From Clostridia bacterium (GTDB lineage: Bacteria > Bacillota > Clostridia > UBA1212 > UBA1255), in NCBI GenBank assembly GCA_017620915.1, contig JAFZSK010000051.1:24215-88214 (forward strand): DNA of 64,000 bases, given 5' to 3'. Numbering within the stretch: the first letter of the stretch is position 1; every line of letters begins with the position of its first letter. A model generated the notes under the pieces. It did not search any database. It was not told the DNA's origin and saw only the letters and a program-made list of their open reading frames with translations. A program made the position numbers and the translations under genes. Positions 1 to 53,353 of the stretch are shown here, one piece after another.

Positions 1-666
1 TTCGGCAGCATTTTCGGCAGCTTCTTCCCGGAGGACGCGGTGGACGTGTTGTCCCAGAAAAAGGCGGCGGAGCTGGCGGGCGTCAATTATATTGCGCCCC
101 CGGAAGACGGCGGCAGCTTCGCGGCCAACGCGTATATCAAAGCCCGCGCGCTGGAGGAATTCGTATTGACCCGCGACGGGACGCGGACGTTCGCAGCGGG
201 GTACAAGGCGCTGTGCGTGATTGCCGACGATTCGGGGCTGTGCGTAGACGCGCTGGGCGGCGCACCGGGCATTTATTCGGCGCGGTATGCCGCGGCGCCG
301 GGGAGTTTTGACGACGCGTCGGACGCGGACAACGTTGACCTCCTGCTCAAGAACCTGACCGGTGTGCCGCAAGAACGCCGCACCGCTCGCTTCGAGTGCC
401 ACATTTCGGCGCTGCTGCGCTTCGGCCCCGGCTTCGCGTCGCAGGTGCGCACGGAGACCGCAGGGGATCTGAAAGGGCTGATCGCATTCGAACGCCACGG
501 GGGCGGCGGCTTCGGCTACGACCCGGTGCTGTTCCTGCCGGAATACGGTCTCACGGTGGCGCAGCTGGACGCGGCAGAGAAAAACCGGATCAGTCATCGC
601 GGCAAAGCGCTGAGAGCCGCGGCGGAGGAAGTATATGGTAATTTTAGAAAACTGTGCGTCGTATGA
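1..666 (+). CDS. rdgB: Non-canonical purine NTP pyrophosphatase (RdgB/HAM1 family), 5' end cut by window edge
   Basis: Frame is open from nt 1. HAM1 hallmarks are present: DDSGLCVDALGGAPGIYSARY, FGYDPVLF, NRISHRGKAL. The track 'M' at 40 is an internal GTG. Confidence 0.8.
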   Translation, partial: FGSIFGSFFPEDAVDVLSQKKAAELAGVNYIAPPEDGGSFAANAYIKARALEEFVLTRDGTRTFAAGYKALCVIADDSGLCVDALGGAPGIYSARYAAAPGSFDDASDADNVDLLLKNLTGVPQERRTARFECHISALLRFGPGFASQVRTETAGDLKGLIAFERHGGGGFGYDPVLFLPEYGLTVAQLDAAEKNRISHRGKALRAAAEEVYGNFRKLCVV

Positions 667-1783
667 CCACGATGCCGTAAAAGCCGCTGTAAAGGCCATA
701 TTCGACGCCTCCGGCGGAATAGAGAAATTGGTCACACCCGGCACGAAAGTGGCTTTAAAGCCCAATCTGGTGGCAAAACGCAAGCCTGAAGAGGCGGCTA
801 CGACCCACCCGGCGATATTACGGGCGGTGGCGGAGCTGTGCGCGGAGGCAGGGGGCGTGGTCACCGTGTGCGAGAGCCCCGGCGGCGTGTACGACAAAGC
901 GGTCCTGAAGGGCCTGTACAAAGGCACCGGCATCGAGGAAGCGGCGCAGGCGGCGGGCGCGGAGCTGAACTTCGATCTGTCCGTCACCAAAGTGGACAAT
1001 CCGGAGGCAATGTACCAGAAAACACTGGAGATATTGGCGCCTCTGGCCGAGGCGGACGTGGTGATCAACCTGGCCAAACTCAAAACGCACGGCATGATGG
1101 TGTACACCGGCGCGGTCAAAAACCTGTTCGGCGCGATCCCGGGCATCGGCAAGGCGGAATATCACTTCAAAATGCCGGATTACGCGTCGTTTGCCAACAC
1201 GGTCATCGATATTTTCCTGGCGGTCAAGCCCGCGTTTTCCATCATCGACAGCGTGGTGGGCATGCACAAAGACGGCCCCACCGCGGGGGAGCCCTTCGAA
1301 GCCGGGCTGCTGCTGGGCGGGGACAACGCCTTCGAAGTTGACCGCGTGGCCCTTGACCTGATCTCGGCGCGCACCGAGCGGGTGCCGATGGCGAAGGAGG
1401 CAATCAGCCGCGGCCTGATGCCGGCGGATATTGACGCCGTGGAACTGGCCGGAGACCTCAGCCTGACCGATGCCCGCAAGCGCCTTACCGGCTTCGTGGT
1501 GAAGTACAACGATGACTTTTCCCGCCTGCATTTTTCCGACGGCTTCCTGGGCAAGCTCATGAGCAAAATGGTCAAACCCAAACCGGTCTTCACGAAGAAA
1601 TGCCGCAGCTGCGGCGAGTGCGCGCGGCTCTGCCCGGTCAAGGCGATCACGGTGGAGAAGGGCAAACGCGCCAAAGCGGATCTGGACAAATGCATCCGCT
1701 GCTACTGCTGCCAGGAGCTGTGCCGGTTCAAGGCGGTCAAGATCAAAAAGACACCGATCACAAAGCTGGCGCAGAAGCTATAA
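635..1783 (+). CDS. DUF362 domain protein with C-terminal 4Fe-4S ferredoxin domain
   Basis: 382 aa. C-terminus has CRSCGECARLCP...CIRCYCCQELC, two CxxCxxCxxxCP-like clusters. The N-terminal 300 aa resembles the DUF362 family. Confidence 0.7.
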   Translation: MVILENCASYDHDAVKAAVKAIFDASGGIEKLVTPGTKVALKPNLVAKRKPEEAATTHPAILRAVAELCAEAGGVVTVCESPGGVYDKAVLKGLYKGTGIEEAAQAAGAELNFDLSVTKVDNPEAMYQKTLEILAPLAEADVVINLAKLKTHGMMVYTGAVKNLFGAIPGIGKAEYHFKMPDYASFANTVIDIFLAVKPAFSIIDSVVGMHKDGPTAGEPFEAGLLLGGDNAFEVDRVALDLISARTERVPMAKEAISRGLMPADIDAVELAGDLSLTDARKRLTGFVVKYNDDFSRLHFSDGFLGKLMSKMVKPKPVFTKKCRSCGECARLCPVKAITVEKGKRAKADLDKCIRCYCCQELCRFKAVKIKKTPITKLAQKL

Positions 1784-1815
1784 GTTACAAGTTTTAAGTT
1801 TTAAGTTTTAAGTTA
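1781..1815. repeat. Tandem heptamer repeat YAAGTTN x5 that forms the whole intergenic spacer
   Basis: taagtta caagttt taagttt taagttt taagtta read directly. It contains the TAA stop of the upstream gene and abuts the ATG of trmL. Confidence 0.85.
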
Positions 1816-2312
1816 TGGTACTGAATGTTGTTCTGGTGGAACCGGAAATACCGCAGAATACGGGGAATATTGCCCGCACGTGCGCGTGCACCGGCGCGCG
1901 GCTGCATCTGGTGAAGCCGCTGGGATTTGAGCTGGACGACCGCAAAATGAAGCGCGCGGGCCTGGACTACTGGTCCGAACTCAATGTCCGGCTGTACGAG
2001 AATTTCGACGAACTCCGCGCGGCGGCGGGGCCGGAGGCGCGTTTCTGGTTTTTTACGACTAAGGCGGCGCGGCGCTACACGGACGCGGCGTTCCGGGACG
2101 GGGATTATCTGGTGTTCGGGCGGGAAACGCACGGGCTGCCGGAGCCGCTGCTGAAGGACAATTACGACCGCTGCCTCCGCATTCCCATGGGCGCGCGGCT
2201 GCGTTCGCTCAATCTTTCCAATTCGGTGGCAATTGCCGTATACGAAGCGCTGCGTCAATCAGATTTTACCGGCCTCGAATCCCGGGGCCATCTTACGGGG
2301 CGGGCGGATTGA
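1815..2312 (+). CDS. trmL: tRNA (cytidine/uridine-2'-O)-methyltransferase TrmL (SpoU family)
   Basis: 165 aa. N-terminus LVEPEIPQNTGNIARTCACTGARLHLV, plus GRETHGLP and SLNLSNSVAIAVYEA, is typical of TrmL. Confidence 0.8.
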   Translation: MVLNVVLVEPEIPQNTGNIARTCACTGARLHLVKPLGFELDDRKMKRAGLDYWSELNVRLYENFDELRAAAGPEARFWFFTTKAARRYTDAAFRDGDYLVFGRETHGLPEPLLKDNYDRCLRIPMGARLRSLNLSNSVAIAVYEALRQSDFTGLESRGHLTGRAD

Positions 2313-2820
2313 CGGCATCGCCCGTCGCGGCGTTGTCAGCGGCGGGCTTGCCGCGGTACAGCAGCAGTTTGCGCATGCCGAAATTCCACACGAACACCAC
2401 CACGGTGGCAACAATTTTGCCGATGATATAGTACTTGTCCGCGTTGAGCCAGGCGCCGAGCACCTGCCGCGGACCGAGCACCTTTTCGAACAGCATGATG
2501 ATCAGATTGTTGAGTCCCAGCCCGATCAGGCTGATGACGGCAAACACCGCAAATTCCACGCCGCGCTTTTTGGTGTTGAGGCCGCGGAACGCCCAGAACG
2601 TGGACAACAGATAATTCGTTACCAGCCCCAATATATACGCGATGGTGGCGGCAATGACGGTATGGTCCCGCAGTCCAAGAAACTCTTTCATCACGACCAG
2701 CGAGCCCATGTCCACCAGGGTGGCAACGACTCCCACCACCAGCGACCGCGCCAGCTGCACTTTTCCTTCGGCGGGCGGATCGATCACGTATTTTCTGAAT
2801 AATTTATTTATCGCACTCAT
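2293..2820 (-). CDS. GtrA family membrane protein (polysaccharide synthesis associated)
   Basis: 175 aa with four predicted TM helices. YVIxG and FxxVGxxxTxxD-like GtrA motifs are present. Confidence 0.65.
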   Translation of the reverse strand: MSAINKLFRKYVIDPPAEGKVQLARSLVVGVVATLVDMGSLVVMKEFLGLRDHTVIAATIAYILGLVTNYLLSTFWAFRGLNTKKRGVEFAVFAVISLIGLGLNNLIIMLFEKVLGPRQVLGAWLNADKYYIIGKIVATVVVFVWNFGMRKLLLYRGKPAADNAATGDAVNPPAP

Positions 2821-2923
2821 TTTTCTGCGTTTCCTTCTGTTTGATGGATGTCAACACTTTGGCCTTGCATGCTGACCGCTGTGCCGATATATTACCACTT
2901 TTCGGGCCGCGGGGCAAGATGGG

Positions 2924-2965
2924 TAAGTTGTAAGTTGTAAGTTACAAGTTATAAGTTTTAAGTTG
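2924..2965. repeat. Tandem heptamer repeat YAAGTTN x6
   Basis: taagttg taagttg taagtta caagtta taagttt taagttg. Preceded by a GC-rich ccgcgggg block. Same unit and orientation as the array at 3721. Confidence 0.85.
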
Positions 2966-3494
2966 TGGTGCGGCCTCCTTACCAAGCGCTTGATCCGGCC
3001 GCGAATATCACGGGTTGGCTGAAATCAGTCACCATATCGATGAAGTTTCGCTCGTTTTTCGGGTTTGAATTCCGCTTGGACATAGCGAATCGCCGTTTTT
3101 CGGTTTTTGCTATGTCGGTTTTACCTGTTCTGGCTCATTCTTGCCACCTTATGCAATGTGAAAAACATAGCAATTCTTTGAATTTGGAGTTTTGCTATGT
3201 TTTTCATGAAAGTAGATCTCGATATTTCGAGCGTTGAAGGCGCCCGAAACGGATTAATATCTTATTGCTCACAAGGGTGTCTCGGAATTGTCGATTTATG
3301 TCGAAACATGTTGAAATTTGTCGAACTATTTTGCTTCCATTTCAGCTCCGAACGGTGGTAAAATCCACGGTGCACGCCGGTACTCCGGTTCTTTTACGGA
3401 GGCGGTTCCCTCAGGCTGACTTGTTGATTTATAGTCGAGAGGGTCGGTCGGTTGACATCTCTCTCAATCTGAAAAGGTGAGGAGGTGGGACGTT

Positions 3495-3599
3495 ATGATC
3501 ACACATAATGAGCTTTACGCTCTGGTCTCGCTGCTAATTGCGTTTGCCAGTCTTGTCATCTACATCACTCGTGGTGGAAATGGCTCAAAAAAAGACTAA
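3495..3599 (+). CDS. Small hydrophobic peptide (34 aa), type I toxin / holin-like toxin candidate; absent from the ORF track
   Basis: MITHNELYALVSLLIAFASLVIYITRGGNGSKKD: one TM helix with a charged C-tail. Strong SD GGAGGTG sits 7 nt upstream. It lies in an AT-rich cassette. Confidence 0.5.
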   Translation: MITHNELYALVSLLIAFASLVIYITRGGNGSKKD

Positions 3600-3681
3600 T
3601 CGCCTGCTCTTTGGTTAGGGATTAGGCGATTAGTCTGATTCATAGCCTGAGGGCAACCGCTATCGGCGTGCTCCTTTGACG
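3587..3681 (-). ncRNA. Putative cis-antisense sRNA convergent on the small toxin ORF (type I antitoxin-like)
   Basis: A minus-strand sigma-70 promoter is read directly: TTGACG(3711-3716)-17 nt-TATAAT(3688-3693). A minus-strand hairpin (arms 3593-3605 / 3624-3636) follows, then a T7 run (plus A-run 3587-3593) overlapping the last codons of the peptide ORF. Confidence 0.45.
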
Positions 3682-3687
3682 CTTTGA

Positions 3688-3716
3688 ATTATACCACATT
3701 GCGGCAAAAACGTCAA
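3688..3716 (-). promoter_or_regulatory. Sigma-70 promoter driving the antisense sRNA
   Basis: Minus strand reads TTGACG-17-TATAAT. Confidence 0.5.
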
Positions 3717-3720
3717 TAAA

Positions 3721-3845
3721 CAAGTTGTAAGTTACAAGTTACAAGTTACAAGTTTTAAGTTACAAGTTAAGGGGCGGCATTCGCCGCGGATCTCTTGGCT
3801 CCGCGAAGCGAACTTATAACTTATAACTTAAAACTTTAAACTAAA
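3721..3845. repeat. Composite element 1: 7 heptamers YAAGTTN, a GC-rich hairpin core (3770-3810, contains CCGCGGATCTC), then 5 inverted heptamers
   Basis: Read directly. Arms caagttg/taagtta ... versus aacttat/aacttaa. The core is ggcggcattcgccgcggatctcttggctccgcgaagcg, with two internal palindromes. Confidence 0.85.
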
Positions 3846-3855
3846 ATATGTGTTC

Positions 3856-3884
3856 TTGCCATTTTTCTTCCGGCATTATATAAT
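3856..3884 (+). promoter_or_regulatory. Sigma-70 promoter for the downstream lipoprotein gene
   Basis: TTGCCA-17 nt-TATAAT immediately after element 1. This implies the real start is ATG 3937 rather than the upstream in-frame ATGs. Confidence 0.55.
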
Positions 3885-3936
3885 GCATTCGGAAACAATA
3901 ATTGAATTTCATCTGATCCGCACGGAGGAACTTGGA

Positions 3937-5886
3937 ATGAGGAAATTGACGGGAGAAGGATTTGAGGAACGGAACAGGGCGGGCAGGAGATCGTCCGCGC
4001 TGGCAGTATGCGCTCTGATGCTGCTCACCGCGTTCGGCTGCAGACCGGGCAACGGTAAACCGGGGGACGGACCCGCGGCGCCCACAGAGAACACGCAGAC
4101 AATTACGGAGGAGCTGGAAACCATGGAACTGTACGGAAACGGCTACAATAACAACATGATCGTCGGCTTTGACGAATACGGCCGCACCGTGACCGCGGCG
4201 GCAGGTAAAAAAGACAAGCGCGACGTCGGTATCTTCTACTTTCTGTGGCTCGGGCAGCCGCAATCCAAAGACATCTACGACGTATCCAAACTGCTGGAGC
4301 AGTACGGCAAGGACATGGTGTTCCACGAAGAGGGCGGCAGCATCAGCCCCAACGGTCAGGCGCACTGGTGGGCAGAACCGCTGTACGGCTACTACAACAG
4401 CACCGACAAATGGGTCATCCGCAAACACATGGAAATGCTCACCGAGGCGGGCGTGGATTTCCTGATTTTCGACACTACCAACTGCGTGCTGTATGACGAA
4501 GTCGCGAAGAAAATAATGCGGATGAGCCAGGAGCTCCGGGACGAAGGCTGGGACGCGCCGCAGGTATGTTTCTATACGCATTCGCGTTCCATTGACACCA
4601 TCAAAAACATCTACAATAACTTCTATAAAAACGGCAATTATCCGGATTCCTGGTACCGCATTGACGGCCGCCCGATGATCATCGGCTACACCAGCGCCAA
4701 GCTGGATAAAAAAGAAGCGCGCAGCCGGGGCGACGATTCGTATGATCCCGAAGACCTGCCCCAGGATCTGCAGGACTTTTTCTATGTCAAAGAAGCGTGC
4801 TGGCCCAACGATTTCCACAACGCCAACTCCTTCCCGTACACCGAATGGACCTACCCGCAGCCGCTCAACGGCAACACGATGAACGTGTCCGTTGCCACCC
4901 ATCCGATGGTGCCGTTCAGCTTTTCATTGACCCATGAAAACTGGTGCAACTGGGGGCGCGGCTACGACGTCAACACCGGCGAAAACAAGCATGAAGACAT
5001 CTACCGTGGCACGTTTTTCCAATCCGAATGGGAGACCGTGTTTTCATCCGACCCGCAGCCCGAGATCCTGATGGTCACCGGCTGGAACGAATGGATCGCG
5101 TACAAACAGCCCTACGGCGGCGAGTACATGCTCTGCGACAACGTGGACATGGAATACTCCCGCGACATCGAACCAATGCAGGGCGGCTACGAAGACGCGT
5201 ATTTCATTCAGATGCTCATGAACATCCGCAAATACAAGTACAACGATTCCGACGGCGTGATCGCGGACAACGTTTACAAGACTATTGATCTCAGCGGCAA
5301 CGACGCGCAGTGGGACGAAGTTAAGGCCGTCTACCGCCACGTGGGCACGGTCAACGACAAACGCAACGCGTACGGCGGCGCTATGACGGTGCACTATTCG
5401 GTGCCTGCTGCGGACAACAACATTCTCTCTGTTAAACTCACCAACGACGCGGAGAACCTGTACTTCCGCATCGAATGCGCGGATCCGGTAAAGGTGACGG
5501 ACAACGCAAACTGGATGAACCTGTTCATCGGCACCGGCACGCCGGCGCAAAAAGGCTGGGAATCCTATGAATACGTGATCGGCCGCCGCCACGACACCGC
5601 GTCGGGTACCGCTACCGTTGAGCAGCTGCGCGCGGATTTCACCGGCAAACACGCGGGCGACGCCGCGTACGCCGTGAGCGGCAATACCGTGCTCTACAGT
5701 GTGCCGCTGGCTTCGCTGGGCATTGAAACCGGCAGCGCCGCCTCCGCGTTCCGCATTTATTTCAAAGTGGCGGACGGTGTAGAAGGCGCGGAAGAGATCA
5801 TGAACTACTATGTCTCCGGGCGCTGTCTGCCCATGGGCCGCCTGAGCTACGAGTACAAATTCAAACTGCCGGATACGGCAGACTGA
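3937..5886 (+). CDS. Secreted lipoprotein, putative glycoside hydrolase-like TIM-barrel protein
   Basis: The lipobox is LTAFGC after a basic N-terminus, with SD GGAGG upstream. The body (FYFLWLGQPQ, HWWAEPLYGYYNSTDKW, GVDFLIFDTTN) resembles GH99/GH71-like secreted hydrolases. Family assignment is uncertain. Confidence 0.55.
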   Translation: MRKLTGEGFEERNRAGRRSSALAVCALMLLTAFGCRPGNGKPGDGPAAPTENTQTITEELETMELYGNGYNNNMIVGFDEYGRTVTAAAGKKDKRDVGIFYFLWLGQPQSKDIYDVSKLLEQYGKDMVFHEEGGSISPNGQAHWWAEPLYGYYNSTDKWVIRKHMEMLTEAGVDFLIFDTTNCVLYDEVAKKIMRMSQELRDEGWDAPQVCFYTHSRSIDTIKNIYNNFYKNGNYPDSWYRIDGRPMIIGYTSAKLDKKEARSRGDDSYDPEDLPQDLQDFFYVKEACWPNDFHNANSFPYTEWTYPQPLNGNTMNVSVATHPMVPFSFSLTHENWCNWGRGYDVNTGENKHEDIYRGTFFQSEWETVFSSDPQPEILMVTGWNEWIAYKQPYGGEYMLCDNVDMEYSRDIEPMQGGYEDAYFIQMLMNIRKYKYNDSDGVIADNVYKTIDLSGNDAQWDEVKAVYRHVGTVNDKRNAYGGAMTVHYSVPAADNNILSVKLTNDAENLYFRIECADPVKVTDNANWMNLFIGTGTPAQKGWESYEYVIGRRHDTASGTATVEQLRADFTGKHAGDAAYAVSGNTVLYSVPLASLGIETGSAASAFRIYFKVADGVEGAEEIMNYYVSGRCLPMGRLSYEYKFKLPDTAD

Positions 5887-5917
5887 CTGCTATAACGCAC
5901 TATAAAAAAGGAGGGCA

Positions 5918-7321
5918 ATGGAAATGAACGGAACGAAAAAGAAACTGACGCTCACAGTGCCGGCTGTGTTCGTGTTGACTGCGATGCTTTTGACATCCTG
6001 TGTCCTGCCGTACAGCACCGTACATGAAGCGGAAACCGCACCGGCGGAAGAATTGACCGACGGACCGGACGGATCGTCAACAACTGCACCTACCACGGCC
6101 CCGACCACGGTTCCGACTGTCGCCCCGACCGCGGCACCTACCGACGCCCCGACGACTGCACCTACCGACGCCCCGACGGCTGTACCTACCGACGTACCTA
6201 CGGATCCGCCTACCCAGGCGCCCACCGAGGAACCCACGGAGGATCCCGCAGTGGTATCCGCCAGACTTGCGCTGGATTTTGTTCAGGCCCATATCGGAAC
6301 GTGGACCTCGTCTCAGGCACCGTATTTTATGAAATTTACTGTCTCCGGCGGCGTGCCGTACGTGACTATGGGCGACTGGACTACCGAGCGGCCTACCTTC
6401 ACCGGTAAAGTCACGGGTGCGGAATATGATGATGCCGGCAGGCTGCTGCTCATCTATGACTTCACCGGCACAAAGTGGACTTCGCAGAATGGCTATTATC
6501 GGGTCTACAGGGAGGAAGAACTCGACGGCAATCCGTCGCTGTTGATCAGCAATGTTGCCGCGGGAAAGGGGTTCAGCTTCATTAAATACCCGTACTTCCA
6601 GTATCCGATGAAGACCGCGACTTCCGGCTGCACGGTAGCTGAATTCATGGGTCTTATAAACGGTTACTGGAGTCAGTATCAGGATCAGTCCGGTGGTAAC
6701 GGCTATTTGTTCGCGTTCCTTGACGGAGACCGCGTCGTGATCCAGATCCGGGAGTGGGATACCGCGGAGATCGTCGATTCCTACACCGCGAAAAAGATAA
6801 CAAAAATCAACAGTGCGGTGGGCAACAGCTATAAGGTCGAGGCAATAAGCGATATCGTTGCCACGCAAGAAACGGCAACGTTCATATTTGCCGCCGACGG
6901 CTCGACCGTTAAAACAGATATCAACATAACTGTTCCCGGAACGAAAGAACCCTGGACGTACACGAAGGACAGCCCGGATAATCACAAAGAAGTGTTCGAT
7001 ATGTTTATGAGGCGATTCAAAGGCACCTGGTACAATGCGGCGGACAACACCTACATCCAGATCGGGTATGTTGACGGCAAGCCCTGGTTCCGGACCGGCA
7101 CCTGGGGCAGCGCTGCTCCGGATTTCTCCGGCGAGATCGCGGCCGCCGGCTTCCGCCAGAGTGAGGGCGCATACATGTTCGGAGCGCTGTATGAATACGG
7201 CAAAAAATATGTTGGCGCCATTATTTACGTAAACGGTACGACGGCGATGGTCAAGTATAGAGCCGGATTCAATGGTCAATTCGCCGAGTACAAGTACGAC
7301 GCTTCAAAGCAGCTGCCCTGA
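5918..7321 (+). CDS. Lipoprotein with Pro/Thr-rich linker, unknown function
   Basis: Lipobox LLTSC. The APTTAPTTVPTVAPTAAPTDAPT linker is encoded by a 24-nt DNA direct repeat. SD AAGGAGGG. Confidence 0.6.
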   Translation: MEMNGTKKKLTLTVPAVFVLTAMLLTSCVLPYSTVHEAETAPAEELTDGPDGSSTTAPTTAPTTVPTVAPTAAPTDAPTTAPTDAPTAVPTDVPTDPPTQAPTEEPTEDPAVVSARLALDFVQAHIGTWTSSQAPYFMKFTVSGGVPYVTMGDWTTERPTFTGKVTGAEYDDAGRLLLIYDFTGTKWTSQNGYYRVYREEELDGNPSLLISNVAAGKGFSFIKYPYFQYPMKTATSGCTVAEFMGLINGYWSQYQDQSGGNGYLFAFLDGDRVVIQIREWDTAEIVDSYTAKKITKINSAVGNSYKVEAISDIVATQETATFIFAADGSTVKTDINITVPGTKEPWTYTKDSPDNHKEVFDMFMRRFKGTWYNAADNTYIQIGYVDGKPWFRTGTWGSAAPDFSGEIAAAGFRQSEGAYMFGALYEYGKKYVGAIIYVNGTTAMVKYRAGFNGQFAEYKYDASKQLP

Positions 7322-16225: not shown

Positions 16226-16411
16226 CTCTGGGGGATTCGAACCGAGCGTCAGCACAACCGGGTACTCAGGAAAAAGGTAAGAAGTGCGTGGCGATATGCC
16301 GGGGGCATATCGCAGCGAGGAGGGCCCTTTAAGCAAATCTGACACACCCGGAGAAAACAGGGAAGATTTGCGTGGGCGAATCCCCGTCAATTATTATGAA
16401 AGATGAAATTA

Positions 16412-16804
16412 TCACCTTTTTGCTATAAGTAGTTTCTCGCGAAGTGCTTCTTGCAGCACTTGTGAAAAATTGATATTTGCCTGCTCCGCTTCTTTGCAGA
16501 GAAGCCAGGGGATAGTGCAATTCTTTTTTACCGCTCTGTTTTCATACGCTTTTCTGTATTGGTCAAAGTCGATATCAACAAGTGTAAGCAGTTCGCCTTT
16601 TTTAACCGGGTAAGTCATATGATGCGGGGAGGGAATGCTTTTTTTATCATAATAGTAATCAACACCCATCATTCCTATAGCGTCTCTTGCCATACCGATT
16701 GCTTCTGCCAGGGAATCACCTTGAGTATTGGCTTCAAAATCCGGTATATAAACGGAGTATCCTTTTGCTTCCGGGGTCAATATCACCGGGTATACTGTTT
16801 TCAT
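16412..16804 (-). CDS. hicB: HicB family antitoxin
   Basis: 130 aa. The N-terminus YPVILTPEAKGYSVYIPDF is a HicB RNase H-like fold. The C-terminus is an RHH-like DNA-binding tail. Confidence 0.8.
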   Translation of the reverse strand: MKTVYPVILTPEAKGYSVYIPDFEANTQGDSLAEAIGMARDAIGMMGVDYYYDKKSIPSPHHMTYPVKKGELLTLVDIDFDQYRKAYENRAVKKNCTIPWLLCKEAEQANINFSQVLQEALREKLLIAKR

Positions 16805-16814
16805 GTGTTGCCTC

Positions 16815-16988
16815 CTATTTTAAGTTGCGTCTTCTTATTATTGCCTGAGCCACTGCTTCTTTTATTTCGGTTTGCCTCGATATTGGCTCGATCTCTTTTC
16901 CGTTTGTATAGATATCATGATTGCCGCCATTCCGCTTTAGATACCACCCGTTTCTAAGTAATAGCTTTATCAGATCTTTACGTTTCAT
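16815..16988 (-). CDS. hicA: HicA family mRNA interferase toxin
   Basis: Start set to MKRKDLIKLLLRNGW (SD GGGAGGG 3 nt upstream). Carries the YcfA-like HicA signature GGNHDIY. The track ORF began at an upstream non-RBS start. Confidence 0.75.
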   Translation of the reverse strand: MKRKDLIKLLLRNGWYLKRNGGNHDIYTNGKEIEPISRQTEIKEAVAQAIIRRRNLK

Positions 16989-17007
16989 GTTACCCTCCCG
17001 GACATTA

Positions 17008-22545: not shown

Positions 22546-24675
22546 ATGATCACGTTAACGGCCGGAAAACTGCAGATCTCTATAGATTTTGAAGCGGGGC
22601 GGATCGCCGCGCTTTCGCTGAACGGCGCCGCACGGCTGGGCGGCAACGCGCCGCTGTTCCGTCTCGGACTCCGGCACACGGACGGGGAACTTGAAGTACT
22701 ATCTGCATACGACGCGCGCGCGTTTGAACCGCTTTCGGGATCGGACGGCGGGGTCTACCGCGGCTTTGAGAAATATCCCGAACTGACCGTGACCGCGAGC
22801 GTGCGCATCGCCGCCGCTTCCGGCGAGCTGGAGTGGGAGATCGCCGTTGACCACGTACCGGCCGGGCTCGTGGCGGAGTGGGTTGAGTATCCGCAATTGA
22901 TATTGCCCCCGACCGCGGACAATAACACAGCCGGTAACGGCGGCCGCATCCTGCTGCCGTACAACGAAGGCGTGCTGATCTCCGACGCGGTCCTGCGTCA
23001 ACGCACGGATTTCCGCCACTTCGAACCCGAATACCCGTCGCTGGGCTGCTATTCGGTATTCCCGAACATGCTCTGCTCCCAGTTCATGGCGTACCTCTGG
23101 GACGACGCCGGTCTGTATATCGGCGCCCATGACCCGGAGCGCGGCTTTAAACAGATCGATTTTTACCCGGTCGACGGCGGCGTGGCGATGCAGCTGCGTT
23201 TGTACACGGGGACAGACCCCGGTGAAGCATACCGGACCGGTTTTCCCATCGTGTGGGCCGCGGTCGCCGGTCAATGGCAGTCCGCCGCGGAGCGTTACCG
23301 CCGCTGGTTTGAAACCCATTTGCCGCCGGACGTGCGGAAGCTCGCTGACAACGCAGATCTGCCCGACTGGTACGCAGACCTGCCGCTGGTGGTGACCTAC
23401 CCGGTGCGCGGTGTCCATGACATGGATGAGATGACTCCGAACAAATTGTACCCGTACGCGAATGCGCTGCCGGTGCTGGAGGATATTGCCGCCGCGGCGG
23501 ACAGCCGCCTGCTGGTGCTGCTGATGCACTGGGAAGGCACCGCGCCCTGGGCGCCGCCGTACGTCTGGCCGCCCTTTGGAGGCGAGGCGGAATTCAACGC
23601 GTTCCGGGATGCGCTGCACGCGCGGGACATGCTGCTGGGCGTGTACTGCTCCGGCTTCGGGTATACGGACAAAAGCAACCTGATCGACAGTTACGACCGG
23701 CGCGAAGAATTTGCCGCCGAAGGGCTGGCGGGGGCAATGTGCGCGGGGCCGGACGGTATTGTCCGCAAGAGCCGCATCTGCACCGGGCAACGTTCCGGTT
23801 ACGATACCTGTCCCGCGTCTGAGACCGGCCGCGCGATCCTGAACGAGGCGTACGCGCCGCTGTTCGACAGCGGGCTGGATTACGCCCAGATCCTGGACCA
23901 GAACCACGGCGGCGGTCAATACCTCTGCTACAGCCGCACCCACGGCCACCCTGCGGCCCCCGGACCCTGGATGACGGCCAACATGCGCGCTCTGCTCTCC
24001 GACTGGAGCCGCCGGGCGGGTGCACGGTCTGCCGCTGACGGGCGGTCCGCCGCCGGCCGCATGCTGCTGGGCTGCGAGTCTGCCGCCGCGGAACCCTTCA
24101 TGGGCAGCCTACCGTTCAGCGACAACCGCTTCGAACTCAACTACTTCTACGGCACACCGGTGCCGTTGTACGCATACGTCTATCACGAGTACATCCGCAA
24201 TTTCATGGGCAACCAGTGCTGCCTCCCGCTGCCCATCGCCGAGGACACGCTGCGCGACCGCATTGCCTACGCCTTCTGCGCCGGCGACGTGCCGACGCTG
24301 GTGTTGACGCCGGAAGGGGAGTTGTCGCCTGCCTGGAGCACGCGGGACTTTTCGCACCTTCCGGATAAGGATGCGGCGCTGCGTTTTATTGCCAACCTGT
24401 CGCGCTTCTACCGCGAGGAGGCCAAGCCGTATCTGTACGGGGGCCGGATGATCGCCCCGCTGCCGCTCGAGTGCGCGGGCCGCGAAGTGGAGTGCCTCTA
24501 CTGGGGCCACCGCGTCACGCTCCCCGCCGTTTGCACTACCGCCTGGGAGGCCGCGGACGGATCCCGCGCGCAGCTCGTGGTCAACCCGGGCCTTTCGCCC
24601 GCCACGTTCACGCTGGGGGGCAATACGTATACGCTGGAACCGCTGGGAATTAGACTTTTTCCTTTGGAGAATTAG
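22546..24675 (+). CDS. Hypothetical 709-aa protein (possibly glycoside hydrolase-like), translationally coupled to sufBD
   Basis: Starts 2 nt after the sufBD stop. Features are HWEGTAPWAPPYVWPPFGGE, a CC pair and a CxxxxxC element. No confident family call. Its last 3 codons are encoded by the GAATTAGG repeat. Confidence 0.45.
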   Translation: MITLTAGKLQISIDFEAGRIAALSLNGAARLGGNAPLFRLGLRHTDGELEVLSAYDARAFEPLSGSDGGVYRGFEKYPELTVTASVRIAAASGELEWEIAVDHVPAGLVAEWVEYPQLILPPTADNNTAGNGGRILLPYNEGVLISDAVLRQRTDFRHFEPEYPSLGCYSVFPNMLCSQFMAYLWDDAGLYIGAHDPERGFKQIDFYPVDGGVAMQLRLYTGTDPGEAYRTGFPIVWAAVAGQWQSAAERYRRWFETHLPPDVRKLADNADLPDWYADLPLVVTYPVRGVHDMDEMTPNKLYPYANALPVLEDIAAAADSRLLVLLMHWEGTAPWAPPYVWPPFGGEAEFNAFRDALHARDMLLGVYCSGFGYTDKSNLIDSYDRREEFAAEGLAGAMCAGPDGIVRKSRICTGQRSGYDTCPASETGRAILNEAYAPLFDSGLDYAQILDQNHGGGQYLCYSRTHGHPAAPGPWMTANMRALLSDWSRRAGARSAADGRSAAGRMLLGCESAAAEPFMGSLPFSDNRFELNYFYGTPVPLYAYVYHEYIRNFMGNQCCLPLPIAEDTLRDRIAYAFCAGDVPTLVLTPEGELSPAWSTRDFSHLPDKDAALRFIANLSRFYREEAKPYLYGGRMIAPLPLECAGREVECLYWGHRVTLPAVCTTAWEAADGSRAQLVVNPGLSPATFTLGGNTYTLEPLGIRLFPLEN

Positions 24676-24717
24676 GGAATTAGGCTATTATCCTGTGTAG
24701 AATTAGGGAATTGGCGG
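24667..24717. repeat. GAATTAGG-family iteron cluster (solitary arm)
   Basis: gagaattagggaattagg ... tagaattagggaattggcgg: three or four units of the same family as 30085 and 50133. It marks the left edge of the low-GC islet. Confidence 0.8.
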
Positions 24718-25126: not shown

Positions 25127-25166
25127 ACGCTTCGCCGCTCGAAAAACGGCGGCAACAAAAACATAT

Positions 25167-25249
<83 letters not shown>

Positions 25250-25280
25250 ACAGGTCATGAGGCCTGTTATTTTTTATTGT
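25250..25280 (+). terminator. Intrinsic terminator after the tRNA
   Basis: aataacagg-tcatga-ggcctgttatt followed by ttttatt. Confidence 0.65.
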
Positions 25281-25393
25281 GAGGCAGCAGAAAACCGGAA
25301 AAGTGCAACCTTTTTCTTATTCACGTCGCCTTATATTATGCAGCTATAAGAGGGCTGCAATACAAATAACTTAAACGGAGACGAGGTCACTTT

Positions 25394-26050
25394 ATGGAAT
25401 CAAAGAGATACATTGACAAGTATAATACGCCAAGAGTATTTCAAATCATTACCACGATCGGATTTGTTATTCTTGTTGGACTAATGCTTAGCGTAACTGT
25501 AATTGTTACTTCTGTCACGACGTATAATCCTAAAACCTGGAGTATCAATACCTGGGAACATACTCGCGACACTGTTTTCGAAATGTTTGAAGCAAAAGTG
25601 GACTACACAGGATTTCTTTTAGGAGCGGTCGCTTTAATTGCGTCTATAGCAGGTATTGTTTTTATATGGTTAAACAGACCAAAACTGTCCGCAATTTGTG
25701 CGGGAATACTTTTAATTATTATGTTTTTGTCTCTGTTAGTTATTGGCGATCTGGGTATGGAGGATTACTTTGACTCATGGAACAATTACGATCGTCTTGA
25801 GGTTAGAGTGCAAGAAACATACTATTTACTTTGGGGATTGACCATCATATTAATCGTGTTCTCTATCATTTCCATTAAGACCACCAAAGAAGGACCGAGA
25901 CCGCCTAAGCTTGTTAGAATCGTCGAAAGCCCTGCGGCTACTCAACCCTCTGCAGCTGATGAACTTAAAAAATACAAAGAATTATTAGATTCGGGAGTTA
26001 TTACTCAAGAAGAATTCCAAGAAAAGAAAAAACAGCTATTAAATCTGTGA
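25394..26050 (+). CDS. Membrane protein with C-terminal SHOCT domain
   Basis: 218 aa, four TM helices. The C-terminus ELKKYKELLDSGVITQEEFQEKKKQLL is a canonical SHOCT motif. Low-GC codon usage. Confidence 0.6.
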   Translation: MESKRYIDKYNTPRVFQIITTIGFVILVGLMLSVTVIVTSVTTYNPKTWSINTWEHTRDTVFEMFEAKVDYTGFLLGAVALIASIAGIVFIWLNRPKLSAICAGILLIIMFLSLLVIGDLGMEDYFDSWNNYDRLEVRVQETYYLLWGLTIILIVFSIISIKTTKEGPRPPKLVRIVESPAATQPSAADELKKYKELLDSGVITQEEFQEKKKQLLNL

Positions 26051-26094
26051 ACGGCTATTTAGTGCTATCCGATCTTTTAGTATACACTCCGCGA

Positions 26095-26132
26095 AAAAGA
26101 GGCATCCTAACAGCAGGGTGCCTCCTTTTTCG
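26095..26132 (+). terminator. Intrinsic terminator
   Basis: gaggcatcc-taacagcaggg-tgcctc followed by ctttttcg. Confidence 0.5.
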
Positions 26133-26229
26133 CCGTGGAATAATCGACATTCAGAAGACTTTATGATATAATGAACAGGTTAAAACGTTACACCGAGGTT
26201 CGAACATAACGGGCAGAGGAGAAACAAAA

Positions 26230-27978
26230 ATGGGCGCGTATCTATTTGAGGACTTTGCGAAAGATCTTTTAAAAATCAAAAGTTTCAAGTATTTTGTTGA
26301 CCGGAGTCTGGATGACCCGGATCACGAGGCCGATGATCCGGAAGGAGAACTGAATAAGTGGATGACTGATGAAGAGCATGAAGGGCAAGAGTTTCTCTCC
26401 TATTCTTTGCCTTTTGTGCTAGCCTATAAGCTAGGTCGGAAGGAGCTGCTTGCGTATCTGAATCGCTATTTTGACCAGGCTTTGGAATGGTATCAGTATT
26501 GGGAGTACAGGCATAGCGGCTTCGGCAGCGGGTTCCACTGTTTTAATATCTTTAACTGTTACATCCTCGCTTTGTGTTCCAGATACTATGCCAGCATCAA
26601 GGAAACGAAGAAAGCGACCTTGGCCTGCTTTTTTTTCATGTGCTGTCTTTCGCACCATGGTGATCCGTCAGAAGAATACTATGAAGAAGACGAAGACCCG
26701 CCGGAAAATTATGAAGAACCGTACGATCTGGTCGATCTGTATGACGCTTTTGAGCCTTATTTCCATGCAATTAAGGAGTTTATCGGCCCTGACTGGCAGG
26801 CGGTCCACCCTTCGGTCACCTGGAATATCGGGAGATATTATTTGGCGAAAAACAATTACCGTAAGGCAAGAGAGTTCTTCTCCCTGGGGGCTTCGATCGA
26901 TTATGATGGACGTCAATCCGTGGAGCCTTTTAATGCCGTTGGCAAAAATCAGTACGAATACGGATTGACCTACTTGAAAGGCCTGGGCGTCAAAGTCAAC
27001 CCCAAAATGGCGCTGAAATATTTCGAAATGGCAGCCGAAAACGCCGGAGAACCGACAATTCCCATAATTCAGGATATGCGAAACGACGGCCTGCTGCCGG
27101 TTGAATGTGATCCGGTCATCGACAACCTGAACGGGTATGGCCGTTGTAACATTCACAATATTTACGATGACGTTTATTACAAAGAGCTTAACGAAGATCA
27201 GACCGAAAAACTGAAATTTTATGCTGATTATTATTTAACACATGAAGGTTTGCTTGATTTTGGCAGCCTTGATTTTTTGCGTGATGTTTACCGGTACCGT
27301 CTGCACGACTATGGAAAAATCAGTGAAGTGGAAGAGCGGATGGATCTGTTGATAGAATCGACCCCGGTCGAGGACAGAAGCAGCGAGATGGATGATTTTT
27401 ACATTTCCCGCTGGAAGGAAAAATGGAAAAAAACCGTCGAAAAGCCGACAACGAATTCCGGTGCGATCCCAAAGGATCCGAAACCCGGCGACACTTTCTT
27501 CTACGGTACAATCAACAACGAGCCTTTGGAATGGAAGGTTTTAGAGGTCAACGATTGCGGAGAGATATTTGTCATTACCACGAAGATTATCCTCAAAATG
27601 TGTTACGACGGCATTTTTGATTGGCTGAATACAGATTTCGTGGAAAACGTCTTCACGGACGATGAGAAAAAACATATCGTTGCCTACGATGATAATCCTT
27701 TTCGGAGAAATGCTCCTCTTTATGTTTATCTTCCAAACCGCAGTCAGATAGAAGAACTGGATGATCCCAATCAACCTGTTGAAGAAACGGATCTGGCAAG
27801 ATCATTGAGCAGCGACACATCATTCTACACCATCGACGGAAAATATATTAAACCCGGTGAAGGTCCTTGTTTTTATAAGGCAACGTATCATATCCGCGGG
27901 ATCCGTCCGGCAATGGATCTTCGCTTAAGGCTTCGGAAAAAGAGGTCGGATAAAGAACGGCGCGACAAAACAGATTGA
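26230..27978 (+). CDS. Hypothetical acidic 582-aa protein with Sel1-like repeat and C-terminal DUF-like domain
   Basis: Low-GC ORF. A Sel1/TPR-like block (GLTYLKGLGVKVNPKMALKYFEMAAENA). The C-terminal FFYGTINNEPLEWKVLEVND motif recurs in uncharacterised Firmicutes proteins. No catalytic motif was recognised. Confidence 0.5.
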   Translation: MGAYLFEDFAKDLLKIKSFKYFVDRSLDDPDHEADDPEGELNKWMTDEEHEGQEFLSYSLPFVLAYKLGRKELLAYLNRYFDQALEWYQYWEYRHSGFGSGFHCFNIFNCYILALCSRYYASIKETKKATLACFFFMCCLSHHGDPSEEYYEEDEDPPENYEEPYDLVDLYDAFEPYFHAIKEFIGPDWQAVHPSVTWNIGRYYLAKNNYRKAREFFSLGASIDYDGRQSVEPFNAVGKNQYEYGLTYLKGLGVKVNPKMALKYFEMAAENAGEPTIPIIQDMRNDGLLPVECDPVIDNLNGYGRCNIHNIYDDVYYKELNEDQTEKLKFYADYYLTHEGLLDFGSLDFLRDVYRYRLHDYGKISEVEERMDLLIESTPVEDRSSEMDDFYISRWKEKWKKTVEKPTTNSGAIPKDPKPGDTFFYGTINNEPLEWKVLEVNDCGEIFVITTKIILKMCYDGIFDWLNTDFVENVFTDDEKKHIVAYDDNPFRRNAPLYVYLPNRSQIEELDDPNQPVEETDLARSLSSDTSFYTIDGKYIKPGEGPCFYKATYHIRGIRPAMDLRLRLRKKRSDKERRDKTD

Positions 27979-29201: not shown

Positions 29202-30104
29202 ATGAGACCATTTGCCATTATCACCGATTCCAGCTGCAATCTGGATTCCGCGCAGGCGCAGGAGTACGGCGTTGACGCCATCCTGCCGATGCATTTTTAT
29301 CTGGACGGCGTGGAGCACGACGCCAGCTGCGACTGGAAAGAGTTCAGCGCCAAAGATTATTATGCCGCCATCGGCAGCGGCGCCCGGATCAAGTCCTCGC
29401 AGGTCACGTCGTACCAGTATGAAGACGCGTTCCGGCGTTTCCTGGACCAGGGGTACGACATATTGTCAATATCCTGTGCGGAGGCGTTGTCCGGCTCCAT
29501 TCGGGAGAGCATCAACGCCGCCAAACGCATTGCCGGCGAATATCCGGACGCGAAGATATATTGCGTTGACAGCTACAACTGCTGCTACTCGCTGGCAATG
29601 GTGCTGATGGAAGCCTCAAAACTGCGGGCGGCGGGGGAGAGCATTGACAACGTGCGCGAATGGATCCTGACCAACCGCGAATTCTACAATGAAGTGGGCA
29701 CCGTGGATAAACTCATATATTTGCGCAACGCAGGCCGGGTCAGCGGGCCCGCCGCGCTGTTCGGCGGTATTTTCAGCGTCAAGCCCATCGTAGTGTACGA
29801 CGAGACCGGTCATAACGTCGCTGTCGAAAAAGTGATCGGCCGCCGCGGCTCTCTCGGGCGCGTGGCAGAGTACGTGAAGAAGTACGGCCGGCCGGAGGTC
29901 AACAACCACATCTACATCATCCACGGCGACTGCGCCGAAGACGCAGAGACGGTGGGCGAACTGATCCAGGCGCAGTTTCCGGATATTAAACTGGAGTTCA
30001 CATACGGCTACGTCGAATCCGGTGTGGGTTCGTCCGTGGGGCCGGGGACAATAATCGTTGACTTTTACGGCACCGGAGAACTTAGAAAATTAGGAAAGAA
30101 TTAG
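29202..30104 (+). CDS. DegV family fatty-acid-binding protein
   Basis: FAIITDSSCNL, the SSQVTSYQYEDAF region and SGSIRESINAAKRIAGEYPDAKIYCVDS are DegV/EDD signatures. The last 8 codons are encoded by the GAATTAGG repeat arm. Confidence 0.85.
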   Translation: MRPFAIITDSSCNLDSAQAQEYGVDAILPMHFYLDGVEHDASCDWKEFSAKDYYAAIGSGARIKSSQVTSYQYEDAFRRFLDQGYDILSISCAEALSGSIRESINAAKRIAGEYPDAKIYCVDSYNCCYSLAMVLMEASKLRAAGESIDNVREWILTNREFYNEVGTVDKLIYLRNAGRVSGPAALFGGIFSVKPIVVYDETGHNVAVEKVIGRRGSLGRVAEYVKKYGRPEVNNHIYIIHGDCAEDAETVGELIQAQFPDIKLEFTYGYVESGVGSSVGPGTIIVDFYGTGELRKLGKN

Positions 30105-30296
30105 GTTTAGTGCCTTAATAGAATTAGACTAATGCCTGAATAGAATTAGGCTTAGTGCTTTTATAGAATAAGGGAATTAGGGAATTGCGGAGCGGCCTAT
30201 TGACCGCGGATCTCACGCGCGGTAAGGAGCGGCGATCTCCTCGAGCGTGAATTCATCGCCGGCGGCGATACCGCAATTCCCTAATTCTATAAAAGT
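30085..30296. repeat. Composite element 2: GAATTAGG-type iterons (~22-bp period), 80-bp GC-rich core (30191-30270) with CCGCGGATCTCACGCGCGGT, then inverted terminal arm
   Basis: Left arm cttttatagaataagggaattagggaattgcgg. Right arm ccgcaattccctaattctataaaag is its reverse complement minus one unit. The core motif is at 30204-30223. Confidence 0.85.
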
Positions 30297-30306
30297 AAAA
30301 AAAGTG

Positions 30307-37976: not shown

Positions 37977-38687
37977 GTGCTGTCAATGCTGCATTTTCTG
38001 GACGGAATAAGAGGCATCGACCTGGTGCCGGTGATCATAAAACTGTTGTGCGCGGTGCTGCTGGGCGGCATAATCGGCGTGGAGCGCTCGTATAAAAACC
38101 GTCCCGCCGGATTCCGTACGCATATTCTGGTGACGCTGGGCGCCACGGTGGCGTCCATGTCCGGCATATTTCTGTATGTTAAGGCGTCGCTGCCCGCGGA
38201 CGTGTCGCGTATCGGCGCGGCCGTGGTCTCCGGACTGGGCTTCCTGGGCGCCGGGACGATAATCGTAACGAAGAACTATACGGTGAAGGGATTGACCACT
38301 GCCGCGGGGCTGTGGACTTCGGGTATCATCGGCCTGGCGCTGGGCGCCGGATTTTACGAGGGGGCGGTAATTGCCACCGCGCTGGTGCTGCTGGCGGAAA
38401 CGACGCTGGGCAACCTGGTCAACAGCATTCGCCGCGACCCCGAGTTCTGCATCTCGGTGCTGTTCCGCGAGAAGACCGCGCTGGATCAGGTGATGCGCTG
38501 CTGCAAGAACCAGCGGATGGCAATAACGAACCTGCGGGTGGTGTCCGCGCTGAACGGCGGCGAGCCCTGCTATCGCGCGTTCGTGCGGCTGCGGCCGAGA
38601 ACAAAAGTTGACCGCGAGAAATTGTTCGGCGAGGTGCGCGCCGTGAACGGGATAATGGGGCTGGAAGAGGTTGAAGTCTCGGAATAG
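37977..38687 (+). CDS. MgtC/SapB family membrane protein (paralogue 2)
   Basis: N-terminus KLLCAVLLGGIIGVERSYKNRPAGFRTHILVTLGA. Same architecture as paralogue 1. The last codons run into the GAATTAGG repeat. Confidence 0.75.
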   Translation: MLSMLHFLDGIRGIDLVPVIIKLLCAVLLGGIIGVERSYKNRPAGFRTHILVTLGATVASMSGIFLYVKASLPADVSRIGAAVVSGLGFLGAGTIIVTKNYTVKGLTTAAGLWTSGIIGLALGAGFYEGAVIATALVLLAETTLGNLVNSIRRDPEFCISVLFREKTALDQVMRCCKNQRMAITNLRVVSALNGGEPCYRAFVRLRPRTKVDREKLFGEVRAVNGIMGLEEVEVSE

Positions 38688-38757
38688 AATTAGGTTTAGT
38701 CCTTGAATAGAATTAGGGAATTTGGTTTAGTCTTAGAATAGAATTAGGTAATTGAGG
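38682..38757. repeat. GAATTAGG-family iteron cluster (three units, 23-31 bp period)
   Basis: gaatagaattaggtttagtccttg / aatagaattagggaatttggtttagtcttag / aatagaattaggtaattgagg. It spans the stop of MgtC-2 and ends at the SD of the next gene. Confidence 0.8.
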
Positions 38758-38766
38758 TTGATCAAC

Positions 38767-48303: not shown

Positions 48304-48305
48304 TT

Positions 48306-48389
48306 GCAAATGGCAAATGGCAAAGGGCAAATGCTGAAAATCGGATGATGGCGCCGTACCTCAACTTAAAACTTAAAACTTATAACTTT
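48306..48389. repeat. Heptamer arms: GCAAATG x4, 27-bp spacer, inverted YAAGTTN x4
   Basis: gcaaatg gcaaatg gcaaagg gcaaatg ... caactta aaactta aaactta taacttt. The array supplies the last codons (FLKL*) of the minus-strand amidohydrolase gene. Confidence 0.85.
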
Positions 48390-49180: not shown

Positions 49181-49193
49181 ATTGCCCTCAATT

Positions 49194-53249: not shown

Positions 53250-53353
53250 TCCGGTTTGCATATTTAAACTGAAAATGATACAATATTGGACATCCCGGAC
53301 CGCCCGGAAACGGCCGGCGGACGGGTGTATATGACCGGGGAGGGACCCTTGAT

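Follow-up and report, generated by a model that had tools for sequence, protein, structure and literature searches.

Probable lineage-specific heptameric simple sequence repeats, variable in length between close relatives, beside a candidate type I toxin-antitoxin unit in an uncultured Clostridia lineage

Among bacterial simple sequence repeats (SSRs), heptameric ones are over-represented, and Xanthomonas and Nostoc show strong enrichment of them in intergenic DNA, where they lie near the upstream open reading frame (ORF) as single arrays or convergent pairs, and where length and sequence vary between close relatives while site and type persist; polymerase slippage has been proposed to explain the preference for 7 nt (PMC4692102). 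The STRR repeats of cyanobacteria are also built of 7-bp units, which form hairpins (PMC2670836). Here we analyze arrays of the heptamer YAAGTTN in a 64,000-nt stretch of a Clostridia bacterium genome (assembly GCA_017620915.1, contig JAFZSK010000051.1, positions 24,215 to 88,214 of the forward strand; "the window" hereafter, with positions counted from its first letter). A preliminary description, made from the letters alone, had read these arrays as the borders of a mobile toxin cassette. We consider it probable that they are instead lineage-specific intergenic heptameric SSRs of the same class as STRR and the Xanthomonas and Nostoc heptamers, and that the toxin-like unit next to them is a resident type I toxin-antitoxin candidate. 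The arrays of the window are as follows; the inverted one and the one near 48 kb are additional to those first described.

1781-1814, + strand: YAAGTTN array of five units (TAAGTTA, CAAGTTT, TAAGTTT, TAAGTTT, TAAGTT)
2924-2965, + strand: YAAGTTN array of six units, left of the toxin segment (the cassette)
3721-3769, + strand: YAAGTTN array of seven units, 5' arm of a hairpin element
3811-3846, - strand: inverted YAAGTTN array of about five units, 3' arm of the hairpin element
48363-48392, - strand: YAAGTTN array of about four units, beginning a few nucleotides past the stop codon (48399-48397) of a - strand gene

The three + strand arrays stood up to direct reading, to Tandem Repeats Finder (TRF; period 7, 3.7 to 7.1 copies, five sites in the window) and to shuffle statistics, with 19 matches of the dimer pattern YAAGTTNYAAGTT in the 64-kb window against 0.01 expected. 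Seven AT-rich period-7 TRF rows at six sites make 7 nt the commonest non-coding period of these 64 kb, with gene context assigned by eye. The first array is, as originally noticed, the entire spacer between the DUF362 gene and trmL: its five units include the DUF362 stop codon TAA and abut the trmL ATG at 1815. The AAGTT core is unchanged in all 18 units of the three + strand arrays. Arrays of the window occupy co-directional gene-gene spacers, sites after stop codons and the interval between divergent promoters; a repeat search of the window showed that they share flanks, with G[TA]GG[TG][GA]CGGC in common. In three cases (promoters at 3716-3688 and 3856-3884 and the candidate at 2917-2889), an array stops 4 to 10 bp short of a -35 box, on its upstream side, and the three share the AACTTAN orientation relative to the promoter. 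Tandem 7-nt units, stop-proximal intergenic sites, length variation and convergent pairs, four features that mark the heptamer SSR/STRR class, are all present.

Relatives were recovered through TrmL homologues, cluster members and homologues of the small peptide encoded in the cassette (P0130 is known from gene coordinates only). Their alleles at three sites are listed below.

Site 1 (DUF362-trmL junction), L520 and L521, 89% nucleotide identity: 'cta TAAGTT ATG', one unit, 3-nt gap
Site 1, window and L522: five units, one of those in L522 mutated to CACGTTT
Site 1, L519, 94% nucleotide identity: six units
Site 1, P0130 (coordinates only): 38-nt spacer, the length of six units
Site 1, L084 (95% TrmL identity) and P0127: AATGGCA-type array in the same position
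Site 1, L085 and L086, 91% TrmL identity: DUF362 gene and trmL overlap
Site 1, L001, 83% TrmL identity: 4-nt spacer
Site 1, relatives at 80-82% TrmL identity: ordinary spacers with a Shine-Dalgarno sequence
Site 2 (left of the cassette), window and L083: six units and core
Site 2, L519: single TAAGT, sequence rejoining that of the window at 3050, left part of the cassette kept
Site 2, L518: degenerate array and core
Site 3 (right-hand pair, left/right units), window 7/5, L515 5/~3, L517 5/4; left-hand array of L518, five units
Site 3, L516: collapsed to CAAGTTATAACTTAAAAC (18 nt, one unit)

Over short evolutionary distances, the arrays thus gain units, lose units or disappear without changing site. 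The suggestion that they are length-variable holds between close relatives, at all three sites; within the strain, two independent assemblies, L081 (99.99% identical to the window) and L083 (one single-nucleotide polymorphism in 1,089 nt), carry identical arrays. The arrays are also dispensable for the neighboring units: in L516 the right-hand pair has collapsed with no damage to the toxin unit or to either promoter. The divergent -35 boxes there lie about 24 nt apart, and the peptide allele is the same as in L515. Farther away, no YAAGTT array was present in 80 species-representative loci (1.24 Mb), which were too far away for a comparison of the cassette or, in the case of L001, truncated.

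The junction alleles suggest how such an array could be built. In the minimal allele, the stop codon followed by GTT abuts the start codon; the window carries five tandem copies of this unit and the 94% relative six, and resizing would proceed through replication slippage or unequal recombination. The expanded state would be the derived one, since more distant genomes have compact or overlapping junctions. Expansion would have replaced a coupled junction of 3 nt in front of trmL, a conserved tRNA-modification gene, by an AU-rich leader of 31 nt that lacks a Shine-Dalgarno sequence. The lack of that sequence in front of trmL, noted at the outset, is borne out by a duplex energy with the anti-Shine-Dalgarno of +0.1 kcal/mol, compared to -3.5 to -17.5 kcal/mol for ten neighboring genes, and the DUF362 and trmL identities hold in profile scans (DUF362/Fer4; TrmL, TIGR00185, above cut-off; GtrA for the next gene). 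Where two arrays converge on a short GC-rich hairpin, they form a long stem-loop, and such a pair can be deleted almost cleanly, as in L516; paired arrays would also set the distance between the divergent promoters of the antisense RNA and of the GH99-like gene to its right. Some arrays have probably been copied between loci as well, because those of a second heptamer, AATGGCA, share head and tail at three sites, and one of them replaces YAAGTTN at the trmL junction of a 95% relative that offers no local seed. The window holds two arrays of this second heptamer.

48297-48333, + strand: AATGGCA array directly past the stop codon of a + strand gene; the same unit fills the L084 DUF362-trmL spacer
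49191-49237, - strand: AATGGCA array filling a - strand gene-gene spacer

The AATGGCA arrays begin at stop codons, and the shared head and tail (48297-48333, 49191-49237 and L084 4168-4210) are TAAT[G/T]GCAAATGGCA and AAGGGCAAATG, respectively. Their opposite strand presents a -35-like TTGCCA every 7 nt. In P0127, the gene caller translated the AATGGCA-type array as an N-terminal extension of TrmL. Arrays of this kind break assemblies and yield false N-terminal extensions, which is a warning for annotation. With one, five and six units, a swap of unit family and a near-complete collapse of a pair, the locus is an unusually clean natural allelic series; read as heptamer SSRs, it would indicate that such repeats arise and resize in place and can rebuild gene junctions, and it would add AT-rich units, from Clostridia of the gut or rumen, to a little-studied repeat class described with G-rich units in Xanthomonas and cyanobacteria.

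The segment between the second and third arrays has the layout of a small toxin-antitoxin unit. Type I toxin-antitoxin systems in which the antisense RNA overlaps the 3' end of the toxin mRNA include txpA/RatA and bsrG/SR4 of Bacillus subtilis and fst/RNAII of Enterococcus faecalis. The features of the segment, with the promoters of the genes on either side, are as follows.

2889-2917, - strand: candidate GtrA promoter TTGCCC-17-TAATAT, found by eye and scoring under the promoter-scan threshold; region kept in L519
3288-3330, + strand: four direct repeats GTCGAA/TGTCGAA, at a spacing of about 10 nt, just ahead of the toxin promoter; also present in L515, L517 and L518
3356-3364, + strand: TGgTAAAAT, a candidate extended -10 for the toxin mRNA, by eye; GTGGTAAAAT does not vary among four alleles
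3397-3417, + strand: 5' arm of the long-range closing helix of the toxin mRNA; all pairs invariant in four alleles
3495-3599, + strand: ORF of a 34-aa hydrophobic peptide (MITHNELYALVSLLIAFASLVIYITRGGNGSKKD), a called gene with Shine-Dalgarno sequence GGAGG at 3481-3485
3587-3681, - strand: predicted cis-antisense RNA of about 95 nt, the antitoxin candidate; fold ΔG -36.6, z -4.9
3593-3636, no strand assigned: perfect hairpin across the peptide stop codon; on the - strand followed by U7 (3593-3587), the predicted terminator of the antisense RNA
3644-3665, + strand: 3' arm of the closing helix, from the fold prediction
3688-3716, - strand: antisense promoter TTGACG-17-TGnTATAAT, 11/12 matches; -35 and -10 invariant in four alleles
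3856-3884, + strand: promoter of the GH99-like gene, TTGCCA-17-TATAAT, from the promoter scan; conserved in L515 to L517

In silico, the segment thus combines a small transmembrane peptide, an antisense RNA with its own promoter and terminator, and a structured mRNA that hides its ribosome-binding site. The peptide is one hydrophobic helix with a KKD tail (the Kyte-Doolittle mean over 17 residues peaks at 2.45, in windows starting at residues 6 to 9), and its frame is retained in five alleles and one 62% relative. The mRNA region 3395-3720 has a predicted fold of -119 kcal/mol (z -5.6) closed by a helix of about 20 bp (3397-3417/3644-3665), and the single-sequence fold and the consensus fold both pair the toxin Shine-Dalgarno sequence, with different partners. 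Across the toxin module, four alleles are 91% identical, above the level of the flanking genes; promoters, helix arms, Shine-Dalgarno sequence and hairpin stems are invariant, and the hairpin loop varies. A point against this reading of the RNA is that covariation gave one compensatory pair only; because nearly all pairs are invariant, the fold is supported by conservation and thermodynamics and not by covariation. The single substitution of L083 (window 3413, L083 818, A to C) would cost the closing helix an A-U pair, in its 5' arm.

By its architecture, the segment fits a resident type I toxin-antitoxin candidate, and the enclosed unit is a candidate for a new type I family of uncultured Clostridia. 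The peptide has no Pfam or NCBIfam match, and Rfam gave no match at E below 0.1 for the toxin-antitoxin segment. An exhaustive search of 1.8 billion representatives added one peptide, of 62% identity, so that the family consists of three clusters and this representative. Wherever the right flank was recovered (L515, L516, L517 and the P0130 coordinates; 84-91% nucleotide identity), the peptide adjoins the same GH99-like gene; the L518 sequence stops short of that flank. The segment does not hold the toxin-like ORF and its antisense unit alone, as had been thought, since the roughly 400 nt upstream contain the four GTCGAA repeats and two related palindromes (ACATAGC...GCTATGT, 3080-3115 and 3165-3200), the second followed by a T-run on both strands. 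This second palindrome may be a bidirectional terminator or part of another small transcript on the left side of the cassette. The GTCGAA repeats resemble the "0A boxes" of Spo0A (TGNCGAA), which would hint at sporulation-linked control.

Beyond the locus, four-unit AAGTT arrays occur in more than 120 metagenome stretches (24-69% GC) and 61 viral stretches in public data. We rejected the idea that AAGTT heptamers are globally special, because three permuted units of the same composition gave 62, 96 and 91 viral stretches, equal to or above the 61 for AAGTT. The unusual feature is the local density of the arrays. When two metagenome arrays lie within 250 nt, they are convergent (24 pairs) and never divergent (0 pairs), and the spacers of these pairs have no motif in common. 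GATCTC, tried as a general core motif, was rejected on the same spacers and on two of its window matches, which lie in coding DNA. Hairpins of the form (CAAGTTY)n-spacer-(RAACTTG)n were seen in many unrelated, often high-GC metagenome contigs (loci L097 to L216, for example L099, L135, L155, L192 and L200), frequently just before a start codon; the L135 and L192 spacers are homologous. Relatives at 80% (L093 3584-4166; L094 1-311 and 2001-2414) have arrays of 15 to 19 units upstream of ruvA, with the units GCAAGTG/ATAAGTG/GCAAGTT and GAGTTAA/GAGTTCA, which enclose repeated blocks of about 200 nt (GGCGAACCGAGTGATGGCACGAATTTTGGGTCT...). In these independently found arrays of an 80% relative, AAG is unchanged in 37 of 37 units. 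The L094 blocks had no Rfam match, and ORF and promoter scans of them gave nothing interpretable; for the window and the cassette, as for these blocks, Rfam returned tRNAs or noise only.

Three elements of the window, in which an array, a GC-rich core and an inverted array follow one another (3721-3846, 30160-30300 and 50175-50309), bear on a different explanation, namely, that the arrays are the arms of a REPIN- or MITE-like mobile hairpin copied in trans by a RAYT-type Y1 transposase, single arrays being half-elements or decayed copies.

3721-3846: the two arrays listed above fold into a hairpin, ΔG -39.5 kcal/mol, z -4.8
3770-3810, + strand: GC-rich core at the tip of this hairpin (GGGGCGGCATTCGCCGCGGATCTC...); relatives retain only GCGGCAWTYGCCGCG
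2966-3010, - strand: GC-rich core copy to the right of the left array, in the opposite orientation to the cores at 3770 and 30186
30160-30300, + strand: array-core-inverted array hairpin with GAATTAGG-type arms, ΔG -67.2 kcal/mol, z -7.4
50175-50309, - strand: another copy of this hairpin element, forming an inverted-repeat pair with 30167-30301 (complementarity 74% across 135 nt)

REPINs are recognized by multiple copies of a hairpin whose arms are inverted repeats on either side of a short spacer. The window has three such elements in its 64 kb, and two of the three are 74% complementary to each other over 135 nt. Arrays share cores as well as flanks: the core copy at 2966-3010 resembles 30186-30270 by eye, and a similar core adjoins the left array of L518. 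A profile of the GC core searched with nhmmer, a weak one built from two sequences, matched its two seeds and marginally L085/L086 only. Arrays based on GAATTAGG stand at 24645-24712, 30085-30190, 38684-38760 and 50135-50200; this family also has composite units of 23 to 31 nt, and one of its arrays is a whole gene-gene spacer including the stop codon TAG. A mobile hairpin would account for the common head and tail of the AATGGCA arrays and their appearance at the trmL junction without a local seed, and the strictly convergent polarity of the metagenome pairs is what terminal inverted repeats would be expected to show. In the 82% relatives, moreover, a perfect palindrome (GCGGGACAGGGGACAGGTCCGTG...CACGGACCTGTCCCCTGTCCCGC; L089 2765-2790 and 2942-3015) with the heptamer GGGACAG twice in its arms stands in front of a Y1_Tnp (RAYT-like) gene; L088 carries a Y1_Tnp identical to that of L089, and the GGGACAGGGGACAGG motif of the palindrome ends the L001 contig (6930-6960), at the position of the window's left array. 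Set against this, tblastn found no Y1 transposase gene in the window or in the loci of close relatives, the series of one, five and six units at site 1 is an in-place expansion of local sequence and not an insertion, the metagenome spacers lack a common motif, and the cores differ strongly between alleles. We regard the mobile hairpin as unlikely.

Several observations nevertheless count against heptamer SSRs that change by slippage as a full account. Neutral slippage and mutation would spread changes over all seven positions, and the unchanged AAGTT and AAG cores suggest otherwise; either amplification of multi-unit blocks or sequence-specific recognition could explain the invariance. That one unit occurs at five sites within 64 kb, with shared flanks, calls for copying between loci. 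Slippage alone does not predict that pairs are only ever convergent, and it leaves unexplained the palindrome of the Y1 gene with its duplicated heptamer, the L001 motif at the left-array site and the three arrays that end just before -35 boxes in one orientation. Because the two same-strain assemblies are identical, variation is seen here between strains and not within this one. The arrays might instead of passive microsatellites be sites on which a dedicated, sequence-specific system acts in cis, with a Y1/RAYT-like copying enzyme or a heptad-binding protein as its agent; if true, such a system would explain the AAGT(T) core that is invariant across species, the polarity of 24 to 0 in unrelated metagenomes, the shared heads and flanks and the swap of unit families. 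The collapse in L516, the mutated core in L522 and the lack of a Y1 gene in the window count against a strict functional requirement, and we hold a dedicated system to be rather unlikely.

In the version of that idea that involves binding only, the heptads would be sites for a sequence-specific protein, as an operator, insulator or UP-like element that tunes adjacent promoters, including those of the toxin-antitoxin unit, in the manner of omega, whose heptad consensus is WATCACW. Units of 7 bp that adjoin one another, keep a fixed core of 5 bp and vary at two linker positions have the look of such sites, as do their occurrence in both direct and inverted orientation and the constant placement of three arrays 4 to 10 bp from a -35 box; omega itself requires four or more adjoining heptads, in either orientation (PMC9499535). 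However, arrays also lie in co-directional spacers or after stop codons with no evident promoter (1781 and 48363), L516 keeps both promoters with its arrays collapsed, a core mutation is tolerated in L522, and one site carries different unit families in different relatives. The ORFs of 1-6500 include no candidate for a binding protein, and the consensus is unlike that of omega. We find this version improbable.

This leaves the mobile cassette of the preliminary description, in which same-orientation arrays are direct repeats, formed by target duplication or serving as recombination sites, that delimit a recently inserted or excisable toxin segment. Arrays of one orientation do lie on both sides of an AT-rich segment, and heptamer arrays enclose repeated blocks of about 200 nt in the 80% relatives. 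The two arrays (2924-2965 and 3721-3769) are, though, unlike in unit number (six versus seven) and unit order, with the copies that contain them 63-81% identical over a 52-nt window, and arrays of the same kind stand at the unrelated sites 1781 and 48363. Either array can be lost while the adjoining cassette sequence stays, the right-hand pair in L516 and the left array in L519. The ccgcgggg block in front of the left array (2907-2914), once likened to an element core, is no part of an element, because it falls inside the candidate GtrA promoter and is retained in L519 without an array. Nor does base composition mark the segment: its GC content, put at about 40% in DNA of about 60%, is 45.7% for 2966-3720 and 43.8% for 2821-3936, ordinary for long intergenic DNA here, the other 21 gaps of at least 80 nt between chosen ORFs having 38-64% (pooled, 49%; coding DNA, 58%). 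Low GC as a sign of foreign origin was accordingly rejected, as other long intergenic regions are similar. No recombinase or transposase was detected in 2821-3936, where + strand ORFs are at most 90 aa and the three scanned against Pfam had no significant match.

Alignment to relatives showed no indel in the simple sense. Among the relatives, no empty site with a single array copy was seen: in L085/L086, the interval between GtrA and the GH99-like gene is about 0.9 kb, compared to 1.1 kb in the window, and has no detectable similarity to it while the flanks align at 76-83%, and L520 has a different operon (DUF7847...RDD) to the right of GtrA. Likewise, none of the peptide copies with a recovered right flank (L515, L516, L517 and the P0130 record) stands in another context. 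The unrelated L085 sequence between the same genes and the other genes of L520 do make this flank a rearrangement point, which speaks in favor of a cassette. GtrA (2293-2820) lies on the - strand, overlapping the 3' end of trmL in this clade; in the 80-82% relatives it follows trmL on the + strand, so that it has been inverted. Its right flank is a synteny breakpoint. Judging from these alignments, the flank is rearrangement-prone, because the L085/L086 interval is unrelated, the L520 operon different and GtrA inverted, and the content of the segment turned over before the clade at 84% or higher nucleotide identity diverged. The cassette is more conserved than the genes that flank it. By the refuting condition set in the preliminary description, namely conservation of the locus in relatives, it is an old resident within the clade and not a recent insertion, and the arrays are neither scars of this turnover nor target-site duplications; delimitation by direct repeats is highly improbable.

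Elsewhere in the window, three AT-rich islands were noted by eye. Two resemble type II toxin-antitoxin loci, a RelB/ParE-like pair at about 52630-53300 on the + strand and a HicA/HicB-like pair at about 16400-17000 on the - strand. At 25166-26315, a tRNA-Met is followed by about 1.1 kb with an apparent membrane-protein ORF, which may be a small integrated element.

We return to heptamer SSRs, the reading we prefer, and to how the locus compares with described systems. The repeat tract of nadA in Neisseria meningitidis shares with it a simple repeat upstream of a promoter whose length alters promoter-distal spacing (PMC2791445); neither high-frequency reversible switching nor a phenotypic effect is in evidence here. 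The omega (ParB) heptads of pSM19035 share contiguous 7-bp repeats, direct and inverted, in at least four copies, next to promoters and linked to a toxin-antitoxin locus (PMC9499535); unlike them, the arrays described here have the consensus YAAGTTN, are chromosomal, occur away from promoters as well and are dispensable in L516, and no ribbon-helix-helix or ParA partner gene was found among the ORFs of 1-6500. With REP/REPIN sequences and their RAYTs (PMC3116915), the locus has in common short intergenic palindromes, two inverted arms around a short spacer and multiple copies, and the 82% relatives have a RAYT-like gene with such a palindrome at its flank; here, the arms consist of heptamers in tandem, in varying number, and not of a fixed REP of 20 to 40 nt (PMC3116915), no RAYT gene was found in the window, and the copies have diverged (74%). 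The toxin segment, for its part, shares with txpA/RatA, bsrG/SR4 and fst/RNAII a single-helix peptide of less than 60 aa with a charged tail, a structured toxin mRNA with paired Shine-Dalgarno sequence and 5'-3' closing helix, and a convergent, 3'-overlapping RNA, which is predicted here; it differs in matching no Pfam, NCBIfam or Rfam family and in the tiny size of its peptide family. The closest likeness is to the heptamer SSR/STRR class (GGGAATC in Xanthomonas, GGGGAYT in Nostoc and Anabaena), with which the arrays share tandem 7-nt units, many intergenic and stop-proximal sites, the coexistence of single arrays and convergent stem-loop pairs, and a length and sequence that vary between relatives at sites, and in types, that last (PMC4692102; PMC2670836). 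They depart from it in that the units are AT-rich (YAAGTTN and AATGGCA) and not G-rich, so that G-quadruplex formation is inapplicable, in that different unit families occupy one site in close relatives, and in their host, an uncultured, Christensenellales-like Clostridia lineage of about 57% GC.

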